DNA of 40,000 nt from Bacillus vallismortis (GTDB taxonomy: Bacteria > Bacillota > Bacilli > Bacillales > Bacillaceae), in NCBI RefSeq assembly GCF_004116955.1, contig NZ_CP026362.1, positions 2,163,677-2,203,676 on the forward strand, written 5' to 3'. A program made the position numbers and the translations under genes. The notes beneath the pieces were generated by a model. That model was not told the origin of the DNA. It did no database searches and was given only the letters and a program-made list of their open reading frames with translations. This document shows, piece after piece, positions 8,709-33,682 of the stretch (positions within the stretch are counted from its first letter, which is position 1; every line of letters starts with the position of its first letter).

Positions 8709-9368
8709 TCATTGCGGTATCTTTAATTTTTGGCCGGGAAAAATCCAGTGCCCCGGCTGCCTGATGTTCCGTTTGCTCCGTTTGATCATTGCAGTTTTAT
8801 TGGCGTTCCAAATTTTGCGCCATTGCGTGCTCTTCCCATAAAACCTGCCGGCAATGTCCCACAGCGTATCTCCCTTTTTTACGGTGTAGGTTTTGGGAGA
8901 CGCCTTCGACGGGCGTTTTGCCTTAGTTTTTTTCTTCTGCTTGATTTTTCGGGGGGAAGCGGTTTTGTATTCTTTCAGGACGATATCAAAATCCCTATCT
9001 CCTATCTCTTTGTCCCCTTCACTGTATTTAAGGCTTTCAATGCTGCATGTCATATTGATTTTTGTTCCCGTAATTAAAAATTGGACAGGCTTTTTAGCCT
9101 TCATCCATTTTTCAATTTTCGCAATGGCATTCTCAGGAGACGGTAAATTTTGATATTCAGCTATCGGTGTATACTTTTTTGGAAAAAAAGAAGAAAATGA
9201 AATTTCTTTCGCTCCAGGTTCTTCAATAAACGTTAGTTCTCCCAGACCTGTAATCTTTACTGAGTCATTCTGTACACTATTTGCTATATCAATTGCTTCG
9301 GGAAGAACAGGAAACCGCAGCTTTTCCTTCCCCTGTGATATCCAAAATTCATAAACAGACTTAGTCAA
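8709..9368 (-). CDS. xkdP: LysM-domain tail protein
   Basis: C-terminal LysM ([18 protein letters not shown]...GQKLKIP). TTG start with SD AAGGGGG-N9. Overlaps the xkdO end by 8 nt. Confidence 0.85.
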
Positions 9369-12300
9369 AAGCTACGACCCCCTTTGTTCCGGTGTTTATG
9401 TCTTTTTGTAACTCATCAAGCAATGCCTGCTTAATTTTCGCTACTAGGCTGTCAGCGTCCTGTCCATTATGGAAATGCTGATCGCCGTTAAACTCAATCT
9501 TAATTTCTTTCGTTCCGGCCGTTTGGATCGTTTGCCGGGTTCCAGAGGTAACGGCTGAAACTTGGCCTGAAGAAAGCTCAGGCTGCTGGGATTGAGATGG
9601 ATCTGTCACTTCCATTCCCAGTGCTTGCGCCGCTTTCTGAAGGAGGTAGCGGCCGCGGATGCCCCGCTCCTCAGGAATGATCCATTCCCGCTTGTTTCCT
9701 TCACCGACACGGGCGATTTGCTCTTTTGTAATCAGTCCGCCGTTGGCATAACCGACGTACGGACCGCCACGTTTCAAGCTTTTAATACCAGGTACATTGT
9801 CAATTGAACCGTATCTGCTTTTGATATATCCTATAGCGGCAGCAGCGTTGTGAATCGGATTTTTAATGTTACCCATACCCGGTGCTTTATGAGCATTGAA
9901 TGTGGTCGGAACTGTCTGCATCAGACCTTGCGATGGATTCCCTGCCTTCGCGTTACTATCCCAAAGGTTAATAGAGTTAGGATTGCCCCCTGATTCATAC
10001 TGTGCAATCGTCATTAATCCTGAAAGCCAGCTTAATGGTGTTTTTGTGGCCATCATTGCAGCCATAAGCCACTGCTTCACATTTCCGCCTACTGCACCCA
10101 TTCCGGAATAAGCAGCCGCCAGTGATCCAGCTTGCTTTTCAGCATATTTTTTCACATCGACAGAATCCAGACCTTTTACAACACCTACAGAGGCAAAGCG
10201 ACCGAGACTCATCATAACTCGAGAAGGCGAATGAATATCTAGCTCTTCACGGAATGCCTTTTCAACTTTTTTCGCGAGTTCCTTGGCAGCTTCATGAACG
10301 TCACTTGCCTTAGAAGTCATACCTGAAACAAAATTCCCGATCATGCCGCTGCCCCAGCCGTTTGAGGATTCCTTCGAACGGACAAACGGTTTATTCACAT
10401 GAGTATTCACGTACTGATCAGTGCCAGTTTGTGAACTATTTTGACCCGAAGCAAACCCTTTGATCGTACCAGTTCCCCATGAAGAGGATTTATTCACAGT
10501 GTTCTGGAATGGTGTTTTGACTTTCGTCTGCAAATAGCCGTCTGTACCGGTTGCAGTGCCGTTTTGACCCTTGGCATACCCGCTTACCATTTGTTTACCG
10601 TAATTGGGTGAAGCAGAAATCATTTGTGTAAATGGCGTATTGATGTTTTTCTTTTTCCAGTCTTCCATATTGACCGGCTCTTTGCTGATGCCTTTGCCAA
10701 TGCCTTCTGAAAATTGCTGTCCGAGTGCGGACGCTTGGCCTGTAAGATTTGCAGTGTCCATTGATGGAGAAGTTGATCCTGATAACGGGCTGGCAGCTGC
10801 TCTTCCCGAGACAGATACCGAACTTCCACCAGAAGACGAAGCGGCTCCCATGTCGTCTACGACTTGCATACCGAGTTTAGACGCCGCTTGTGAAAGAAGC
10901 ATTTTGCCACGGCCTCGGTTGTTATCAACAGGGATAACGAATTCCTTGCCGGCTTCACCGATCCATGAGATGGTTGGTTTGGTGATGTAACCGCCTGTGG
11001 CATTTTTATCCGGATCCTTACCTTTATCCGGATCTCCGCCGCCGGTTACAAAATTGATCACTTTACTAGCTACGCCGCCAGCTTTATCCCAAATTTTCTT
11101 CACCCAGCCGAACGCTTTAGAAAAAGCATCTGAGATGGCTTCTCCAACCTTTGCAAGAGGTTCTTGGATATTCTTTTTAAACCAGCCGCTCAGACCCTTC
11201 CATATCTTCTTGACGGTATCTATTGCTTTTTGGAAAGCGTCAGAAATTCCCTTGCCTACATCTGAGACTGTATTTTTGACCGGGTTCCAAACTGTATTCA
11301 TGAACCATCCCGATACTGTACTGAAAACACTCTTAATCTTATTCCATGCACCAGTCATTTTATCCCAGATTGTGGTTGCCGCTCCGATAACAGCGGATTT
11401 TACTGGCCCCCACACATTGCTCATAAACCAGGATGCAACTGCACTGAACACATTTTTAATCGTCGTCCATGCACCTATAATTTTAGACCAAATGGCTGTA
11501 GCCACACCGACAACCGCCGATGACACAGGTGTCCAGACATTGTCCATAAACCATGTGGATACGGTACTGAAAATGGTTTGTATCGTTGTCCATGCGTTTA
11601 CAATGTTTGACCATATGCTTGTAGCTACGCCCACAACTGCTGATGATACTGGCGTCCAGACATTATCCATAAACCATGTTGATACAGTTCCCCAAGTATC
11701 CTGAATGGCTGACCATGCACTTTGTGCCCCCTCTGTAATGCTGTTCCATGTATCATTTAGAGCGCCAGCATCAATTGCCTTACCTAAACTTTCTCCGCCG
11801 AAAGATCCTGCAATTCCTCCTATTGCACCGCCAATCACTGTCCCGACTCCCGGAACAACACTTCCAATTGCCGCTCCGGCTGCTGCTCCTGCTAGACCTC
11901 CGCCGGCTGAACCTACTTTTTCACCGGCATTATCCTTATTGATTCCGGCTAAGTCAGTAAGAGACAAGATTTCGCCTAATCCTGGGATTCCTTTCGCGGC
12001 TCCTTTTAAGCCCTTCAGTCCCCCCTTCAAACCTTTTGAACCTCCCAATGATTTCAGAAGACCTGAAAAACCTTTACCGGACGCGCCTTTAGCTGCTTTT
12101 GCGGATTTCGGTGTATTCACAGAATTTGTTTTATTGCCTTTCGTTGATGAACCGTTTCTGTTTTTGACTTTTTTGCTTTTGCCTGTACTGATTCCGGCAC
12201 AGCAGCATCCGCAAGCCCTGCCCCATTTTCCGCCTGACTTCTTCGATTTAGAGCCCGACGCTTTTTTGTTCATAGAAGGTTTTTTCGTGCGGTTTGAGTT

Positions 12301-14295
12301 GTTAGAAGTTGCGTTCTTTGTATTGGCTTTTGGTGCTTTTTGTTTCCCTTTGCTTCCGTTGGATTTTCCCCCAAGCAGACCACCAAAATCCAAATTCCCC
12401 AGTTTTTCAGCAATGCCTTTTATAATCTTTTCAAAAAACTCTCCCGCTTTTTCAATAATTTTATCAGGGCTGAATTTCTCAAATTTTTTCGCGATTTTGG
12501 AGACAATGTTATCAACAAACTTTTCCGCTTTATTGGCGATTTTATCCGGGTTCAGAAAATTAAATTTATCCGAGATTTTGTCAATGATATTCGTTACAAA
12601 GTCTTCTGCTTTCGTGATAATGGCATCGGGACTAAATTTGCTCACGATATCATCCACTTTTTTCATAAAGGACTCTGTAAATTTGTCCAATTCATTAAAA
12701 ATCGTTTCCGGGCTGAATTTACTTACGACATCGTCCACCTTTTTCATAAAGGACTCTGTAAATTTGTCCAGCTGCTTAAAAATGGCTTCAGGACTGAATT
12801 TACTTGCGATTTCGTCTACTTTTTTCATAAATGAGCCTGTAAACTTATCCAGCTGCTTAAAAATGGCTTCTGGGCTGAATTTGCTTGCGATTTCGTCTAC
12901 TTTTTTCATAAATGAGCCTGTAAACTTATCTAGCTGTTTAAAAATGGCTTCAGGACTGAATTTACTTGCGATTGCATCTACTTTCTTCATAAAAGAGCCT
13001 GTAAACTTATCCAGCTGTTTTAGAATCGTTTCCGGACTGAACTTTGTCGCAATCGCATCAACCTTACTCATGAACGATGTTGTGAACTTATCCAGTTGTG
13101 CTAGAATTGTCTCCGGACTGAACTTCGTTGCGATTGCATCCACTTTTCCCATAAATGATGTTGTGAACTTATCCAGTTGTGCCACAATTGTCTCCGGACT
13201 GAACTTTGTTGCGATTGCATCCACCTTACTCATCAACGATGTTGTAAACTTATCCAGCTGGGACAGAATCGTTTCTGGGCTGAACCTTGTCGCAATTGCA
13301 TCCACTTTTCCCATAAATGATGTTGTGAACTTATCCAGTTGTGCCACAATTGTCTCCGGACTGAACTTTGTTGCGATTGCATCCACTTTACTCATGAATG
13401 ATGTTGTGAACTTGTCCAGCTGAGTTAACATTGTTTCCGGGCTGAATTTTGTCGCAATCGCATCCACCTTATTCATGAACGATGTTGTAAATTTATCCAG
13501 CTCTGTTAAGATTGTTTCCGGGCTGAATTTTGTGGCGATGTCATCCACTTTTTCCATGAATGATGCAGCAAATTTGTCCAGTGCTGTCAAAATCGGTTCT
13601 GGATCAAACATGCTTGCAATACCACCGGCATTTCCTCCGGTTGAAGGAGCTGCTTTGTCGGGTGAATCTGAGCTTCTTCCCATGCTGTCAATTCTTTTCT
13701 GCAAGGAATCCAGCTTACCTGATACCTTGTCATTAATAGCCAGCTCCAATTTGTTGTCTTTTCCTGTTAAGGCATCAATACCTGCTGAAATGCGACCGAC
13801 TGTTTTCATGACGTGATCAATCACGCGTATCGTAACAGAGTAGCCACTTTGAAGTGCGTTTTGCATATAACGCTGTATTTTTTGAACAGCCGGCGAAATT
13901 TGGTCTTCTGCACTCAGCATGATCGTAAATCCTTTAAATCCCGCAACGAGCTCTCTTAATCGTTCAAACTTTGCTGTTGCTCGGTCATTGGCGCCAATTT
14001 TAATAGATACCGATGCCGGCAATCCCTGCAATTGAGTTTGAACCTTCTGAATGACAGTGCTGGCATCATCCTCAGCCGAAATGGAAATCATTTGGGCGCC
14101 AAGCTTTTTCTTTAATGATTTTTGTATGCGGTCAATTGTCCTTAACACACTTTTGCTCTCTTTTCGTATATCGATAGCCCTATTTCGCTGCGTTACTTTT
14201 CTATACTTTTCAAGCGCTCTAAATCCATTTTGTATCTTTCTTAACTTTTTGCTTACACGGTCTTCCATCTCAAATCTTGCTGTCAGCTTTGCCAA
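9361..14295 (-). CDS. xkdO: Tape measure protein with C-terminal lytic transglycosylase domain, 1644 aa
   Basis: Position after the chaperone genes. Two internal tandem-repeat families, a Gly-rich hydrophobic segment, and an SLT motif ([30 protein letters not shown]). TTG start with SD AGGAGGGG. Confidence 0.9.
11071..11754 (-). repeat. About 5.5 tandem in-frame 123-bp (41-codon) Trp-rich repeats within xkdO
   Basis: Residues ~848-1075. Unit S(T/G)WFMxNVWxPVxSAVxGxATxIWxxxxxAWxxIxxxFSTV. Confidence 0.85.
12394..13608 (-). repeat. 15 tandem in-frame 81-bp (27-codon) repeats within xkdO
   Basis: Protein residues 230-634 with FSPE at 257, 284, 311 ... 527. Consensus [27 protein letters not shown]. 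Twelve copies are well conserved and three are degenerate. Confidence 0.9.
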
Positions 14296-14924
14296 TTACG
14301 ATGCCCCTCCTTTCTTTGCTTGTTTTTCAAGAAGATCCAGCTTATAACCGATCAGCCCATACAACAGCGCCTTAAAATTGCGCGGCGCTTCATGCAGTTC
14401 TAATAAATCAGATGGAGAATAATGAAGCTCGTGCATCGCATAGTAGAGATACACGGCTTCTTTATGTCCATCTTTGATTAGTTTTTTGCTTCTTCTTCCA
14501 GGTCTTCTAATTCATCTTCGAAGCCATTAATCTCAATCGCTTTGTTTAACCAGTTTGCGTATTCGCCCCCGACGGACAGGACGCGTTTCGCAACTTCTAC
14601 CGGGTCGGCCGTTTTGTATGCTTCTCGAAGATCTTTTGAGCGGAAGTCAGGATAAACGGTTGATTCCACTGCGATTCGGGCATAAAAGCGCTGGCTGTCT
14701 AAGTCTTTTACACGGCCTCTGCCTTTGACATTTTTATACGTTGTTGTTTCTTTCTCCAATTCATCAATGCGCTCTGTCGTGATCGCTTTAAAAACAAATG
14801 GCACGATGTTCCCTTTTTTATCAACAAAACGCTTTGAGATCGGCACTTTGATTTCCTCAGCTTCAATTGTTTTCCCCGGCATAAAAAAGGAAAGATCATA
14901 TACGTTTTCGTTCTTCTCGCTCAT
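14296..14924 (-). CDS. Predicted -1 frameshift fusion chaperone (xkdN plus a 61-codon extension covering the small ORF region before xkdO)
   Basis: Slippery A_AAA_AAC immediately before the xkdN stop. The -1 frame is open to TAA 14296-14298, abutting the xkdO start. This is the conserved G/GT-type architecture. Confidence 0.6.
14478..14924 (-). CDS. xkdN: Tail assembly chaperone (zero-frame product)
   Basis: Track ORF, 148 aa, between the tube gene and the tape measure. Acidic C-terminus. Confidence 0.88.
   Translation of the reverse strand: MSEKNENVYDLSFFMPGKTIEAEEIKVPISKRFVDKKGNIVPFVFKAITTERIDELEKETTTYKNVKGRGRVKDLDSQRFYARIAVESTVYPDFRSKDLREAYKTADPVEVAKRVLSVGGEYANWLNKAIEINGFEDELEDLEEEAKN
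14481..14487 (-). promoter_or_regulatory. Programmed -1 ribosomal frameshift heptamer A_AAA_AAC
   Basis: Read directly: GAA GCA AAA AAC TAA on the minus strand. Confidence 0.6.
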
Positions 14925-15011: not shown

Positions 15012-15455
15012 TTAAAACGTGTCAGAAAGCTTTTCAGGCACGTCGAAGTCCTCGAATGTAAATGGAACTTCTTCCTCTAATGCTTCTGAATCGACATCAA
15101 GGCTTGCGATTTTCGCTGAGTCAAAGTTGACGTCGTAAAGCGTGACTCTTTCCGTGCCTCTTCCGGAGGACTTATCATCCAGCACAGCTTGCAGCGTAAA
15201 GTAAGGATCACTGCCTTTTTTGACGTAGTCCATCATCAGGATCACGAATTTTGATGTGACTTTATAGAACGTCGCTGTTCCTGTTCCGTTTGCCCCTGTT
15301 GTTTTATGGCCGGTCATGCGGCGGCCCATAATGTTTACTTCAGACTTGTTTTTCTCGACATTTGCTTCAAATGTTTTGATGTGCGCCATTTCTTCGCCAT
15401 CGAGAAATAAGCGGCCTTCTTTTCCTGAAATTGTGTTTTGCGCTTTTAATGCCAT
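15012..15455 (-). CDS. xkdM: Tail tube protein
   Basis: Track ORF, 147 aa, immediately after the sheath gene. Confidence 0.9.
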   Translation of the reverse strand: MALKAQNTISGKEGRLFLDGEEMAHIKTFEANVEKNKSEVNIMGRRMTGHKTTGANGTGTATFYKVTSKFVILMMDYVKKGSDPYFTLQAVLDDKSSGRGTERVTLYDVNFDSAKIASLDVDSEALEEEVPFTFEDFDVPEKLSDTF

Positions 15456-15456
15456 A

Positions 15457-16857
15457 TTAGTTTACCTCCACATTAAAGTAGAATTTTTCTGCCGCGTCGA
15501 CAGGCTGTACAGCCAAGTCGATCAAGAAGCCGTCACGGTCTTCATTCATGGAAATGGTGATATCTTCATCAGAATCAAAGCCGGTGATGCCGCCCGCATC
15601 CTGAAGAGTTGTCATGTATTGCGTGATCATCGTTTTCACATACTGAAGCCCGTCTTCAGACGCCGGAATATCGCTTCCGCTGCCTTTTCGTGATTTGATT
15701 AAAGTTTTCAGCTCGCGAGTCAAATCATTATTTACAGCGTCCAGAACTCGAACAATTTTATTTTTCGCAAACTTTTTGTTTTTCTCGGCTGTAAATGTGA
15801 CGAGTGAGTTAATGTCTTTTTCTACGCTCACGGATTTATCGCGGGCATCGAATGTGAATAAAAATTCGCCTTTGCCCAGACGTTCAACAATCGCATCGTG
15901 GTCAAGGCGGTGTAACACATCAACAGCGCCTTCATACTCTACAAATGTCAGTGATTGGTTAAAGGTAGCTCCTGCGCTTGCTCCAGCTACCCAAGCCGTT
16001 GCTTTGTCCGGCGGAACTTCCGTGCCATCCTCCAACAGCACACCTTCTGTTACGTTGATGATGCCTTCATAGTCACCGGCATAATTGGCTGTGACCCCTT
16101 GCACTTTTTGTCCTTGGCCGTCGCGCAGGCGCTTAATGAAAGCGGCAAACGTCGCCTTCAGCTGATCACCTTCCGCAACAGGCAGCACAATCACATCAAA
16201 GCTCTCCGTTTCAGCCGCGGCTAAGAAATCTGTATAGTCGGAGTTGACAGGGGCCTTATCCGTACCGCCGGATAAACGGATTCCCGCAGATGCATTCAGT
16301 GTCTCAGCTGAAGTATCTCCTTCTGAACCAGTGAGCGGAATGGTCGAAGAAAGATCGCCTGTTCCAGTAAAGGTGACATAGCCGTTAGCTGTTAATTCTT
16401 CAGCCTTTTTGACCGTCTGCTTATCAACCTCTGATTCATCCATATACGTTGTCACATCAAAAGAAGCAGCATCCAGCACATTTGGGTTGATGCGGATGAT
16501 AATGTCATTGCCTTTTGAACCGCCATATACAGCTGTCGCTTTGACGCCTTCAGCAATATTAGCAGACGCTCGGACACCTTCGGTTAAACGGTACATCAAT
16601 ACCGTTTGTGCATTTTTCTTCGCTTCACGCAAAAGCAATAAGGACGGATCATCAATGCTGAGGCCCACTTTTTTGTTTAGGTCCTCAACACTGGAAATGG
16701 AAACGAACGTTTTCGCTTCGCCCCAGCTTGATGCGACTGGAAGCGCGACAGTTCCCCGCTCACCGAGTGACACCCGCTCCTGTGCTGTCGTTTTAAAGTT
16801 AAAATAAATGCCTGCACGTTCTTTTTCTTTGCCTGTTGTAAATGTTCCGCCATTCAT
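15457..16857 (-). CDS. xkdK: Contractile tail sheath protein
   Basis: Track ORF, 466 aa. Size and position typical of a phage tail sheath. Confidence 0.93.
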   Translation of the reverse strand: MNGGTFTTGKEKERAGIYFNFKTTAQERVSLGERGTVALPVASSWGEAKTFVSISSVEDLNKKVGLSIDDPSLLLLREAKKNAQTVLMYRLTEGVRASANIAEGVKATAVYGGSKGNDIIIRINPNVLDAASFDVTTYMDESEVDKQTVKKAEELTANGYVTFTGTGDLSSTIPLTGSEGDTSAETLNASAGIRLSGGTDKAPVNSDYTDFLAAAETESFDVIVLPVAEGDQLKATFAAFIKRLRDGQGQKVQGVTANYAGDYEGIINVTEGVLLEDGTEVPPDKATAWVAGASAGATFNQSLTFVEYEGAVDVLHRLDHDAIVERLGKGEFLFTFDARDKSVSVEKDINSLVTFTAEKNKKFAKNKIVRVLDAVNNDLTRELKTLIKSRKGSGSDIPASEDGLQYVKTMITQYMTTLQDAGGITGFDSDEDITISMNEDRDGFLIDLAVQPVDAAEKFYFNVEVN

Positions 16858-32125: not shown

Positions 32126-33682
32126 CAGCTTGTAGAGAAAACGACGTTTTTTCTACAAGCTTTTTTGTTTTTTGCTGTTTCCTTAGTTATTCAGCGGATT
32201 TCAAAAACTCAAAAAGAGCTCCCACATACCTAGCCCTGCTTGGCTAGGTATGTGGCAATCTTCTTCATGTTCTGGCATGCGGCTGTGAGGAGAACTTGTT
32301 CACTCACATTCCGTTTTCCCCTCAACCTGCAATAGCGAAGCCCATGCAGCTGTTTTGAATCTGCAAAGCTTCGCTCTATTTTTTCTTTTCTTTTTTTATA
32401 GAGGGTTTTTCCTGAAACAGATAAACGATTTTGTCTGACCTTTTCTTTATGGTCCTCCCATACATGCCGGGTGATGATCTTCTGGCGGTTCTTTGATCTT
32501 GTGCATTGCGCAAGCAATGGGCATGCGGAACAGGTTTCAGGATTTGATTTATATGACCTGTAGCCTTTTCGGTCAGTTGTTGAGTATGTAAGTACCTGCT
32601 GGTTCGGGCAAATGTAACTGTCTTGTTCACTGTCATAATGAAACTTCCATTTTGGAAACAAGCCTCTAGTAGGGTGATATCGTCTATGGGCAATAACGCC
32701 AAAAATATGGCGGTCGGCTAACCCTTTACAGATCGGAGTCGTTAAATAACCAGAATCAAGAGCGACGGCTTCTACTTCAAAATGAAATCGTGCAATTTGG
32801 TGATCTAATCGGTCAAGATAAGGCACAGAATCATGGACATTTCCAGGCGTAACATAGGCGTCGGTGATAATGTTATGTTTCATATCCGTTGTTCGGTGAT
32901 CTAAGTAAAAGAAACCCTCCGGTTTGTTTTCACGATACATATATCCACTTTCCGGATCAGTGGTACTGTGGCGGATCTCTTTTTCAGCTTTCACCTCCTC
33001 TTTGGCCGGTAATGGCTTTTTTCCGTGCTCCTCCCGATCTTCTTGAATGGCTTCATTTAAATCTTTGATATAGTTTTGTGTATCCTGTTCAATCGTTTTT
33101 CTTGTGTATTTGTGCTTGTTGGCATTGGCTTTCAGATGAGTTGAATCGGTGAATAGGACACGTCCACCCACCATGTCATGATTGATGGCCTGAAGAACGA
33201 TCTCATCAAAAATGTCTTGGAAAATCGTTGTATCTTTAAAGCGTGTGCGTCTGTTCCAGCTGATGGTGGAGTGGTGCGGAACTGGGTCATTGATATTCAG
33301 GCCCAAAAACCATCTGTACGCCATATTGTAGTAAATTTCTTTTTCAAGCTGTCTTTCTGAACGGATACCGTAGAGGTAGCCGATAAACATCATTTTGAAT
33401 AAAATCAGCGGGTCGAGTGAGGGGCGGCCTTTGTTTTCGCTGTAGTAAGGCTTAACCTTTTCAATGATAAAAGAGAAGTCTATGTGTTTATCAATTTTTC
33501 GAAGCAAATGATCCTCTTCGACGAGTTGGTCAAGCAGAACAAATTCGGCTGCGTTTTGAGAAGAATTTCTTGTGTAGAACATGAGAAAGACACCGTCCTT
33601 TTTAGTCTTTCTTTTATTTTATTACAGAAGAATGGATATTTTAAGGAAAAATAAAGGCTGTCGAGATTTTCTCGACAGCCTG
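32126..33682 (-). mobile_element. 1557-bp insertion sequence, IS1182/IS5-superfamily-like
   Basis: Single DDE transposase ORF. Imperfect terminal inverted repeats (CAGCTTGTAGAGAAAAC / CAGGCTGTCGAGAAAAT). Flanked by an 18-bp direct repeat. Confidence 0.82.
32230..33582 (-). CDS. DDE transposase (InsH-type N-terminal domain, IS1182-like C-terminus)
   Basis: 450 aa. N-terminal GRPSLDPLILFKMMFIGYLYGIRSERQLE. Candidate DDE residues in FTDSTH, ALDSGY and ERSFADSK. C-terminal LRYCRLRGKRNVSEQVLLTAACQNMKKIA. Confidence 0.88.
   Translation of the reverse strand: MFYTRNSSQNAAEFVLLDQLVEEDHLLRKIDKHIDFSFIIEKVKPYYSENKGRPSLDPLILFKMMFIGYLYGIRSERQLEKEIYYNMAYRWFLGLNINDPVPHHSTISWNRRTRFKDTTIFQDIFDEIVLQAINHDMVGGRVLFTDSTHLKANANKHKYTRKTIEQDTQNYIKDLNEAIQEDREEHGKKPLPAKEEVKAEKEIRHSTTDPESGYMYRENKPEGFFYLDHRTTDMKHNIITDAYVTPGNVHDSVPYLDRLDHQIARFHFEVEAVALDSGYLTTPICKGLADRHIFGVIAHRRYHPTRGLFPKWKFHYDSEQDSYICPNQQVLTYSTTDRKGYRSYKSNPETCSACPLLAQCTRSKNRQKIITRHVWEDHKEKVRQNRLSVSGKTLYKKRKEKIERSFADSKQLHGLRYCRLRGKRNVSEQVLLTAACQNMKKIATYLAKQG

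Follow-up and report, generated by a model that had tools for sequence, protein, structure and literature searches.

Copy-number variation of a 27-residue tandem unit in the tape measure protein of a PBSX-type element from Bacillus vallismortis and its relatives

The window analyzed here is a stretch of 40,000 nucleotides (nt) from Bacillus vallismortis (contig NZ_CP026362.1, positions 2,163,677 to 2,203,676) that carries a PBSX-type defective prophage. We examined the tape measure gene at the XkdO position of this element, whose product contains a tandem array of 27 amino acid (aa) units, and compared it to its relatives. The open reading frame (ORF), taken from the ORF list and its translation, spans 9361-14295 on the minus strand, encodes 1644 aa and uses a TTG start codon with a strong ribosome binding site (AAAGGAGGGG) 8 nt 5' of it. 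The gene, the neighboring tail genes and the array are positioned as follows.

15457-16857, minus strand: tail sheath protein XkdK (Pfam sheath domains; PDB 3lml and the diffocin sheath)
15012-15455, minus strand: tail tube protein XkdM (PF09393; PDB 2guj, XkdM, E 3e-93; diffocin tube 8v3t, E 1.6e-21)
14478-14924, minus strand: XkdN-like tail assembly chaperone (TAC) (PF08890, E 1.9e-39; phrog_389)
14296-14454, minus strand: XkzB-like 52-aa ORF between the chaperone and tape measure genes (phrog_20560, E 8e-25)
9361-14295, minus strand: tape measure protein (TMP) gene at the XkdO position, 1644 aa (PHROG TMP families and phrog_11489; PDB 6v8i match in the C-terminal part)
12637-13608, minus strand: twelve canonical 27-aa (81-bp) units, aa 230-553, consensus FSPETILxxLDKFTxSFMxKVDxIAxK
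12394-12636, minus strand: three degenerate terminal units (13-15), aa 554-634, with position and sequence preserved in those array-bearing relatives that were aligned by unit
8709-9368, minus strand: XkdP-like LysM / Dit-like protein directly downstream of the tape measure gene (PF01476 and PF21821)

More than 15 PHROG families named 'tail length tape measure protein' matched the 1644-aa protein (e.g. phrog_167, E 8e-79), the 80alpha TMP (PDB 6v8i) matched its C-terminal part (E 7e-6), and tblastn with the protein returned annotated TMPs of many phages. The gene sits in a tail module with the XkdN-like TAC and the XkzB-like ORF directly upstream, the tube and sheath genes further upstream, and the LysM/Dit-like XkdP and a YqbQ-like protein downstream. 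The wider locus contains an XepA equivalog (E 7e-150), an Xpf-like sigma factor and an Xre-like repressor and is flanked by genes for a YjqC-like Mn catalase and an XlyB-like LysM hydrolase. As all of these genes are in place this is the canonical PBSX locus, and the 1644-aa protein is the TMP that belongs to the PBSX-type element residing there, confirming the assignment to the XkdO position made in a preliminary description of the window. The closest match to the N-terminal part was a partial protein labelled B. vallismortis with 97% identity. The stop codon of the XkzB-like ORF abuts the TTG start of the tape measure gene, and this ORF fills the gap to the XkdN chaperone gene.

Cutting the protein in 27-aa steps from residue 230 produced 15 units in perfect register, covering residues 230-634 (nt 12394-13608). 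Tandem Repeats Finder (TRF) independently reported an 81-bp period with 11.6 copies, 82% matches and a score of 785 at 12651-13593, and a hidden Markov model (HMM) of the unit gave 15 full-length matches in the 1644-aa protein and no others. HMM counts at a permissive threshold over-counted both repeat types of the protein (a second array is described below), and all counts were redone with score and coverage cut-offs. The register reproduced exactly the coordinates and the division into twelve canonical and three degenerate units of the preliminary description, which had also called the twelve units near-identical. This wording was too strong as units 1-12 share 59-100% protein identity (76% on average) and 4-31 of their 81 nt differ. 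For units 13-15 identity to the other units is just 15-30%, and they retain the length, the register and an F/L-S/N-P start. The array is not a chance pattern, because its period is divisible by three, it is in frame and it is conserved across species.

Comparison of 183 distinct units revealed five near-invariant positions (F1, P3, I6, F13 and K27). Hydrophobic residues occupy unit positions 1, 6/7, 10, 13, 17/18, 21 and 24, making a seam with 3-4 spacing. Phe is found at positions 1, 13 and 17 (spacings of 12, 4 and 11) and Trp is absent; an 11-aa or 18-aa aromatic periodicity, as in the TMP repeats of the Belcaid type, was looked for in the 27-aa unit and was not found. A single-sequence AlphaFold2 (AF2) model of aa 200-660 (pLDDT ~60) predicted 15 helices of 23 residues separated by 4-residue K-F-S-P breaks. 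Searches of the array against Pfam and PHROG gave only sub-threshold coiled-coil noise (DUF3618, Mod_r and three unannotated phrogs, with no passing stretch), and these were rejected as family assignments.

To compare copy number, one genome per species and IMG/VR were scanned with the conserved C-terminal 544 aa of the protein, yielding 125 loci, and B. atrophaeus isolates were added through a protein cluster look-up. Arrays were detected in B. spizizenii, B. mojavensis, B. halotolerans, B. atrophaeus, B. velezensis, B. amyloliquefaciens, B. siamensis, B. nakamurai and IMG/VR prophages, and array-type fragments labelled B. subtilis exist as well (P0029, from a cluster of 75 members). The 41 distinct full-length relatives, drawn from B. 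spizizenii, B. mojavensis, B. atrophaeus, B. velezensis, B. siamensis and IMG/VR prophages, carried 8-27 units in proteins of 1450-1977 aa. The unit count thus varied across the B. subtilis group, rather than standing at 15 throughout, and the 15 units of the B. vallismortis protein are mid-range. Nineteen of the 41 relatives are longer than 1644 aa, the longest having 27 units in 1977 aa. Fitted linearly over the 41 proteins, protein length rose by 25.9 aa for each 27-aa unit and by 34.1 aa for each unit of the second, 41-aa array (R2 0.90). In the finished B. spizizenii TU-B-10 genome the protein has 18 units and 1726 aa, and B. mojavensis and B. halotolerans have 13-14 units plus an insertion of ~150 aa. 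This insertion lies just before the array (L003, L046 and L047, aa ~200-380; also P0031 and P0032) and consists of Lys/Glu-rich helices, a CCC motif and a Gly-rich stretch; the 14-unit allele bearing it reaches 1772 aa. An exhaustive search for the array among 1.84 billion representatives found the 27-aa unit only in Bacillus, with no clostridial relative. Matches outside Bacillus (e.g. a saposin-repeat protein) were unrelated repeat proteins and were rejected as homologues.

Isolates of B. atrophaeus demonstrated a copy-number ladder within one species. Alleles of 1501, 1555, 1582, 1609 and 1636 aa carry 8, 10, 11, 12 and 13 units, and in each of them the rest of the protein amounts to 1039 aa. 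The alleles with 8 and 13 units had 0 differences over 1285 flanking residues, as did those with 10, 11 and 12 units, and these last three differ only by the number of copies of one identical protein unit. Identical flanks at differing unit number indicate that copy number changes faster than point substitution. The unit sequence itself is under purifying selection. Among units 1-12 of the window the synonymous divergence (dS) was ~1.35 and the ratio of nonsynonymous to synonymous divergence (dN/dS) was ~0.09.

The length of a tape measure protein sets the length of the tail at about 1.5 Å per residue. This reportedly goes back to engineered deletions and duplications, in lambda gpH by Katsura and Hendrix in 1984 and in T4 gp29 by Abuladze and colleagues in 1994; neither protein has a repeat array of this kind. 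At 1.5 Å/aa, 27 aa correspond to 40.5 Å, matching numerically the 40.0 Å rise of a diffocin ring and bearing out the earlier suggestion that a unit is about one ring long. Diffocin (PDB 8v3t; PMC10996793), the nearest homologous tube with a solved structure, has a helical rise of 40.0 Å, 32 layers and an 817-aa TMP, CD1366, that forms a trimeric coiled coil of ~1388 Å spanning the full lumen, or 1.70 Å/aa. Even a run of short helices predicted to be 'globular' is linear in the lumen, where the density is 25 Å wide (PMC10996793). Diffocin resembles the locus described here in its homologous XkdM-like tube and XkdK-like sheath, and differs in the size of its TMP, for which no 27-aa array was reported (PMC10996793). 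A search of the literature on tail lengths of PBSX, PBSZ and other PBSX-like particles found one usable pair, B. pumilus 15.1, with a TMP of 1423 aa and a tail of 227 +/- 4 nm, or 1.60 Å/aa (PMC8347963). On these scales one 27-aa unit should add 40-46 Å, about one ring, and the 1644-aa protein is predicted to give a tail of ~247-280 nm; the preliminary description had predicted roughly 245 nm. We infer by analogy with these machines that tail length would scale with unit number and that the array would adopt an extended trimeric conformation.

Taken together, these observations are best explained by the array being a run of helical segments within the ruler protein of a contractile, PBSX-type particle, an array whose length changes by whole units. 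We consider this explanation probable, at roughly 0.7. Each 27-aa unit would form one amphipathic helix of ~23 residues closed by a K-F-S-P break, and the short helices, joined by turns, would lie in line within the tube lumen as in diffocin. Unequal recombination or slippage between units would add or remove whole units, and as each unit is 81 bp (27 codons) the change would be in frame. Every gain or loss may then shift the ruler by ~4.0-4.6 nm, roughly one 4.0 nm ring of tube and sheath. The alleles in natural populations thus form a ladder from 8 to 27 units, on which the 15-unit allele of the window is an ordinary, intact and mid-range member. Precedent comes from TP901-1, in which TMP deletions shortened tails proportionally (PMC5099701).

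Several points weigh against this explanation. The tail length gained per unit, which is the central functional step, is one that we infer for array-bearing strains. At the measured 1.6-1.7 Å/aa a unit corresponds to 1.08-1.15 rings and not exactly one. The AF2 model was built from a single sequence at pLDDT ~60, is silent on oligomer or helix fold-back, and has a tertiary arrangement of pTM 0.40. Some of the within-species B. atrophaeus steps come from short-read assemblies, which are able to collapse identical units. Finally, the units are conserved more strongly (dN/dS 0.09) than a passive spacer should require. A TP901-1 repeat could be replaced by alanines without effect (PMC5099701), and set against the selection measured here this result means that the units may do something further. 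Their strong conservation suggests that they are more than passive spacers and, for example, make contacts with the chaperone or the tube, which is the chief rival of the ruler explanation or else a complement to it.

A stricter version of this explanation is that the 27-aa unit is a true one-ring tick, with the ruler commensurate with the 40 Å tube lattice so that each hexameric ring meets the same contacts. This version is doubtful, although if true it would explain the strong conservation of the units. In natural Bacillus populations tail length would on this view evolve rapidly and under selection, ranging over 8-27 units or ~75 nm, and could perhaps follow how thick the envelope of the target strains is and be coupled to the xkdV fiber type.

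The same conservation can also be read in favor of an array that is not an extended ruler at all. Neighboring helices might instead fold into hairpins or into a compact domain, and the units serve another role, with a change in tail length of much less than 4 nm per unit, or none. Such a role could be docking of the XkdN/XkzB chaperone, contact with tube subunits during polymerization, or formation of a channel after ejection. The strong purifying selection and the near-invariance of F1, P3, I6, F13 and K27 fit such a role, the 4-residue K-F-S-P linkers could in the model make tight turns, and the aromatic repeat markers of other TMPs have been proposed as chaperone partners (PMC5099701). However, the short helices of the diffocin TMP are linear in the lumen and the protein spans its full length, a 25 Å-wide lumen density leaves little space for six-helix hairpin bundles, and protein length tracks tail length at 1.6-1.7 Å/aa in the two homologous machines with data. 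We regard folding back as unlikely.

The preliminary description held that the array looks expanded, and a recent expansion in this strain would make its tape measure and tail unusually long relative to the PBSX norm. Two local duplications, of units 4/6 (4 nt apart) and units 9/10 (5 nt apart), are in keeping with this idea, as is the length of 1644 aa compared to 1292-1440 aa in alleles of the strain 168 type. These are the only recent duplications visible, and most units are 12-31 of 81 nt apart, with the dS of ~1.35 noted above. In alignments to the B. spizizenii and B. mojavensis arrays the units match one-to-one. Unit 1 pairs with the first unit of both B. spizizenii arrays (2-4 nt differences), units 13-15 pair with the last three units of two B. 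spizizenii arrays and one B. mojavensis array (3-15 nt differences), and in this unit-by-unit alignment gains and losses fall mid-array. Judged from these sequence comparisons, the array is ancient and maintained by selection at the protein level with continual local turnover, and was not recently expanded in this strain. This unit orthology between species, the dS and the mid-range copy number largely refute the expansion reading, which we consider very unlikely.

The comparison with strain 168 also bears on this point. The preliminary description gives about 1332 aa for the 168 XkdO and about 200 nm for the PBSX tail. For the comparison the proteins of B. tequilensis (1334 aa) and Bacillus sp. 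N13C7 (1333 aa) were used as proxies of the 168 protein. These alleles, together with those of B. inaquosorum (1293 aa) and IMG/VR (1292-1440 aa), make up the 168 type, and no 27-aa units were found in any 168-type allele across this size range (1292-1440 aa). Such alleles lie at the same locus with the same neighbors and share the C-terminal region with the window, and the N-terminal two-thirds is a different cassette. DNA homology to the 168-type loci is lost between window positions 11010 and 14305, and identity over the first 225 aa is only 29%. When full-length similarity was tested only the C-terminal part from ~aa 1095 proved conserved, a region of ~550 aa including the SLT domain with 76-94% identity. 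The gene is thus a mosaic in which an array-type N-terminal cassette of ~1095 aa is swapped for an unrelated 168-type cassette of ~785 aa (L043, L006, L014 and L039), with breakpoints that are sharp in the DNA, at the start codon and near aa 1095. By position and sequence similarity, the 1644-aa protein is the positional XkdO orthologue with a different N-terminal cassette. Because the 168-type alleles lack the units and the whole cassette differs, the 312-aa difference from 168 is not an expansion of a shared array. In B. mexicanus (L039) a 168-type cassette is joined to a C-terminus 92% identical to that of the window. Two PBSX variants of B. subtilis (vOTU 5 and vOTU 6) have been described that differ in xkdO and xkdV (bioRxiv 10.1101/2024.07.03.601884), and these fit the two cassette types found here. 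In that study xkdO is named as a cell-wall hydrolase, and neither the repeat array nor its variation in copy number is described.

We also considered whether the array length is an assembly artefact, with repeats joined wrongly or collapsed either in the window or among its relatives. Many public entries are partial, beginning or ending inside the array at contig ends, and many are annotated 'phage portal protein' (P0003, P0004, P0007, P0008, P0029-P0035), suggesting that the array is a frequent break point of short-read assembly and that copy number is under-sampled. The longest allele (L120, IMGVR_UViG_2511231180_000002; 26-27 units, 1977 aa, array at aa 242-970) contains a 581-nt stretch exactly repeated at an 81-nt offset, corresponding to about eight identical units in a row, which suggests either a very recent burst of expansion or an assembly problem. 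The 10-, 11- and 12-unit B. atrophaeus alleles, which differ only in copies of one identical unit, also fit an artefact. Against this, exact in-register DNA repeats in the window reach at most 92 nt, a length that ordinary reads resolve, making misassembly there unlikely, and the ORF is intact. Exact repeats in most relatives' arrays are 29-228 nt, the finished B. spizizenii TU-B-10 genome has its 18 units, and the same lengths recur across independent assemblies. An artefact is in our view highly improbable as the cause of the array lengths. Least credible of all is that the variable middle of the protein is a specificity domain recognizing molecules of the target cell, as speculated for B. 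pumilus, where the middle of xkdO is one of two variable regions (PMC8347963), and in keeping with the co-variation of the B. subtilis xkdO variant with the xkdV tail-fiber variant (bioRxiv 10.1101/2024.07.03.601884), as it is unit number that varies while unit sequence is conserved, and the protein lies inside the tube in homologous machines.

Repeat-bearing TMPs were already known. Variable numbers of tandem 11-aa units have been established in TMP genes (Belcaid, Bergeron & Poisson 2011, PMC3271669), and the TMPs of the lactococcal phages TP901-1 and p2 contain 11-, 18- and 40-aa repeats, with TMP deletions that shorten tails (Mahony et al. 2016, PMC5099701). Such repeats are regarded as a natural facilitator of duplication and deletion (PMC3271669, PMC5099701). 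These proteins have in common with the gene described here in-frame tandem units whose number varies between related elements. Their units are 11, 18 or ~40 aa long with Trp/Phe at fixed spacing and belong to non-contractile siphophages, whereas the unit described here is 27 aa long and bounded by proline, belongs to a contractile PBSX-type element and forms an exact within-species ladder. What is new is the 27-aa proline-delimited unit in the TMP of a contractile PBSX-type element.

Rulers of contractile tails have so far been tested mostly with engineered mutants. The alleles described here form a natural series from 1450 to 1977 aa in 27-aa steps, some with identical flanks, in the genetically tractable B. 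subtilis clade. Tail measurements along it would yield a clean slope for a contractile machine, expressed as nm per residue or as rings per unit, and would also test whether a repeat unit can be commensurate with the lattice of the tube. Where prophages are compared with xkdO taken for no more than a 'variable hydrolase', the cause of the variation is overlooked. For tailocins engineered against Gram-positive bacteria, the units would offer a modular length setting.

Further features of the 1644-aa protein lie downstream of the 27-aa array.

12199-12213, minus strand: poly-cysteine motif CGCCC in a Lys/Ser/Gly-rich linker, aa 695-699
11794-11925, minus strand: Gly/Ala-rich hydrophobic segment, aa 791-834, conserved in all relatives
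11065-11679, minus strand: second tandem array of about five 41-aa (123-bp) Trp-rich units, aa 873-1077, TRF period 123
9682-10053, minus strand: SLT lytic transglycosylase domain, aa 1415-1538 (PF01464 at 60.4 bits, above the gathering score of 21.3)

The first three units of the 41-aa array are very similar, and its copy number varies among relatives, as seen in P0003 and P0002, which differ by one 41-aa unit, and in the 1292-1440 aa range of the 168-type alleles. This array resembles the classic tape measure repeat of the p2 40-aa type (PMC5099701), a likeness of length and Trp content. A poly-cysteine motif was present in every cassette type, as CCCC (velezensis group), CCCGCC (168 type), CCSCC (pumilus group) and CCC (licheniformis group). 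In a trimer the CGCCC motif would gather at least 12 cysteines. The insertion of B. mojavensis and B. halotolerans adds a second CCC (L003, aa ~303-305).

Three relatives had reading frames interrupted upstream of the conserved C-terminal part, L001 (B. halotolerans ATCC 25096, 1010 aa), L002 (B. spizizenii DV1-B-1, 1442 aa) and L019 (B. stercoris D7XPN1, 681 aa), and pseudogenization or sequencing error may account for this. Per genome, between one and three tape measure paralogues of the skin-element/YqbO type were found (L007-L010, L012, L013, L015, L020, L080-L107). Their products start with MAKLTATF, are 1583-1585 or ~1740-1785 aa long, and have the conserved C-terminal part and no 27-aa units; the length of the 1585-aa class is remarkably constant.

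On the opposite strand a 572-aa ORF at 11705-13423 (plus strand) overlaps the array and linker. It is most likely not a gene and was rejected as one, its Pro/Ala/Phe-rich translation being a mirror of the tape measure coding sequence. A transposase gene of the IS1182 family (E 3e-147) is located at 32230-33582 on the minus strand, in the chromosomal flank past the regulatory end of the PBSX element and near the XlyB-like gene. Within the tape measure protein a 43-aa motif occurs twice, at aa 1101-1143 and aa 1519-1561 (10867-10995 and 9613-9741, minus strand). The two copies bracket the Ser/Gly-rich and SLT part and are among the most conserved stretches of the family.

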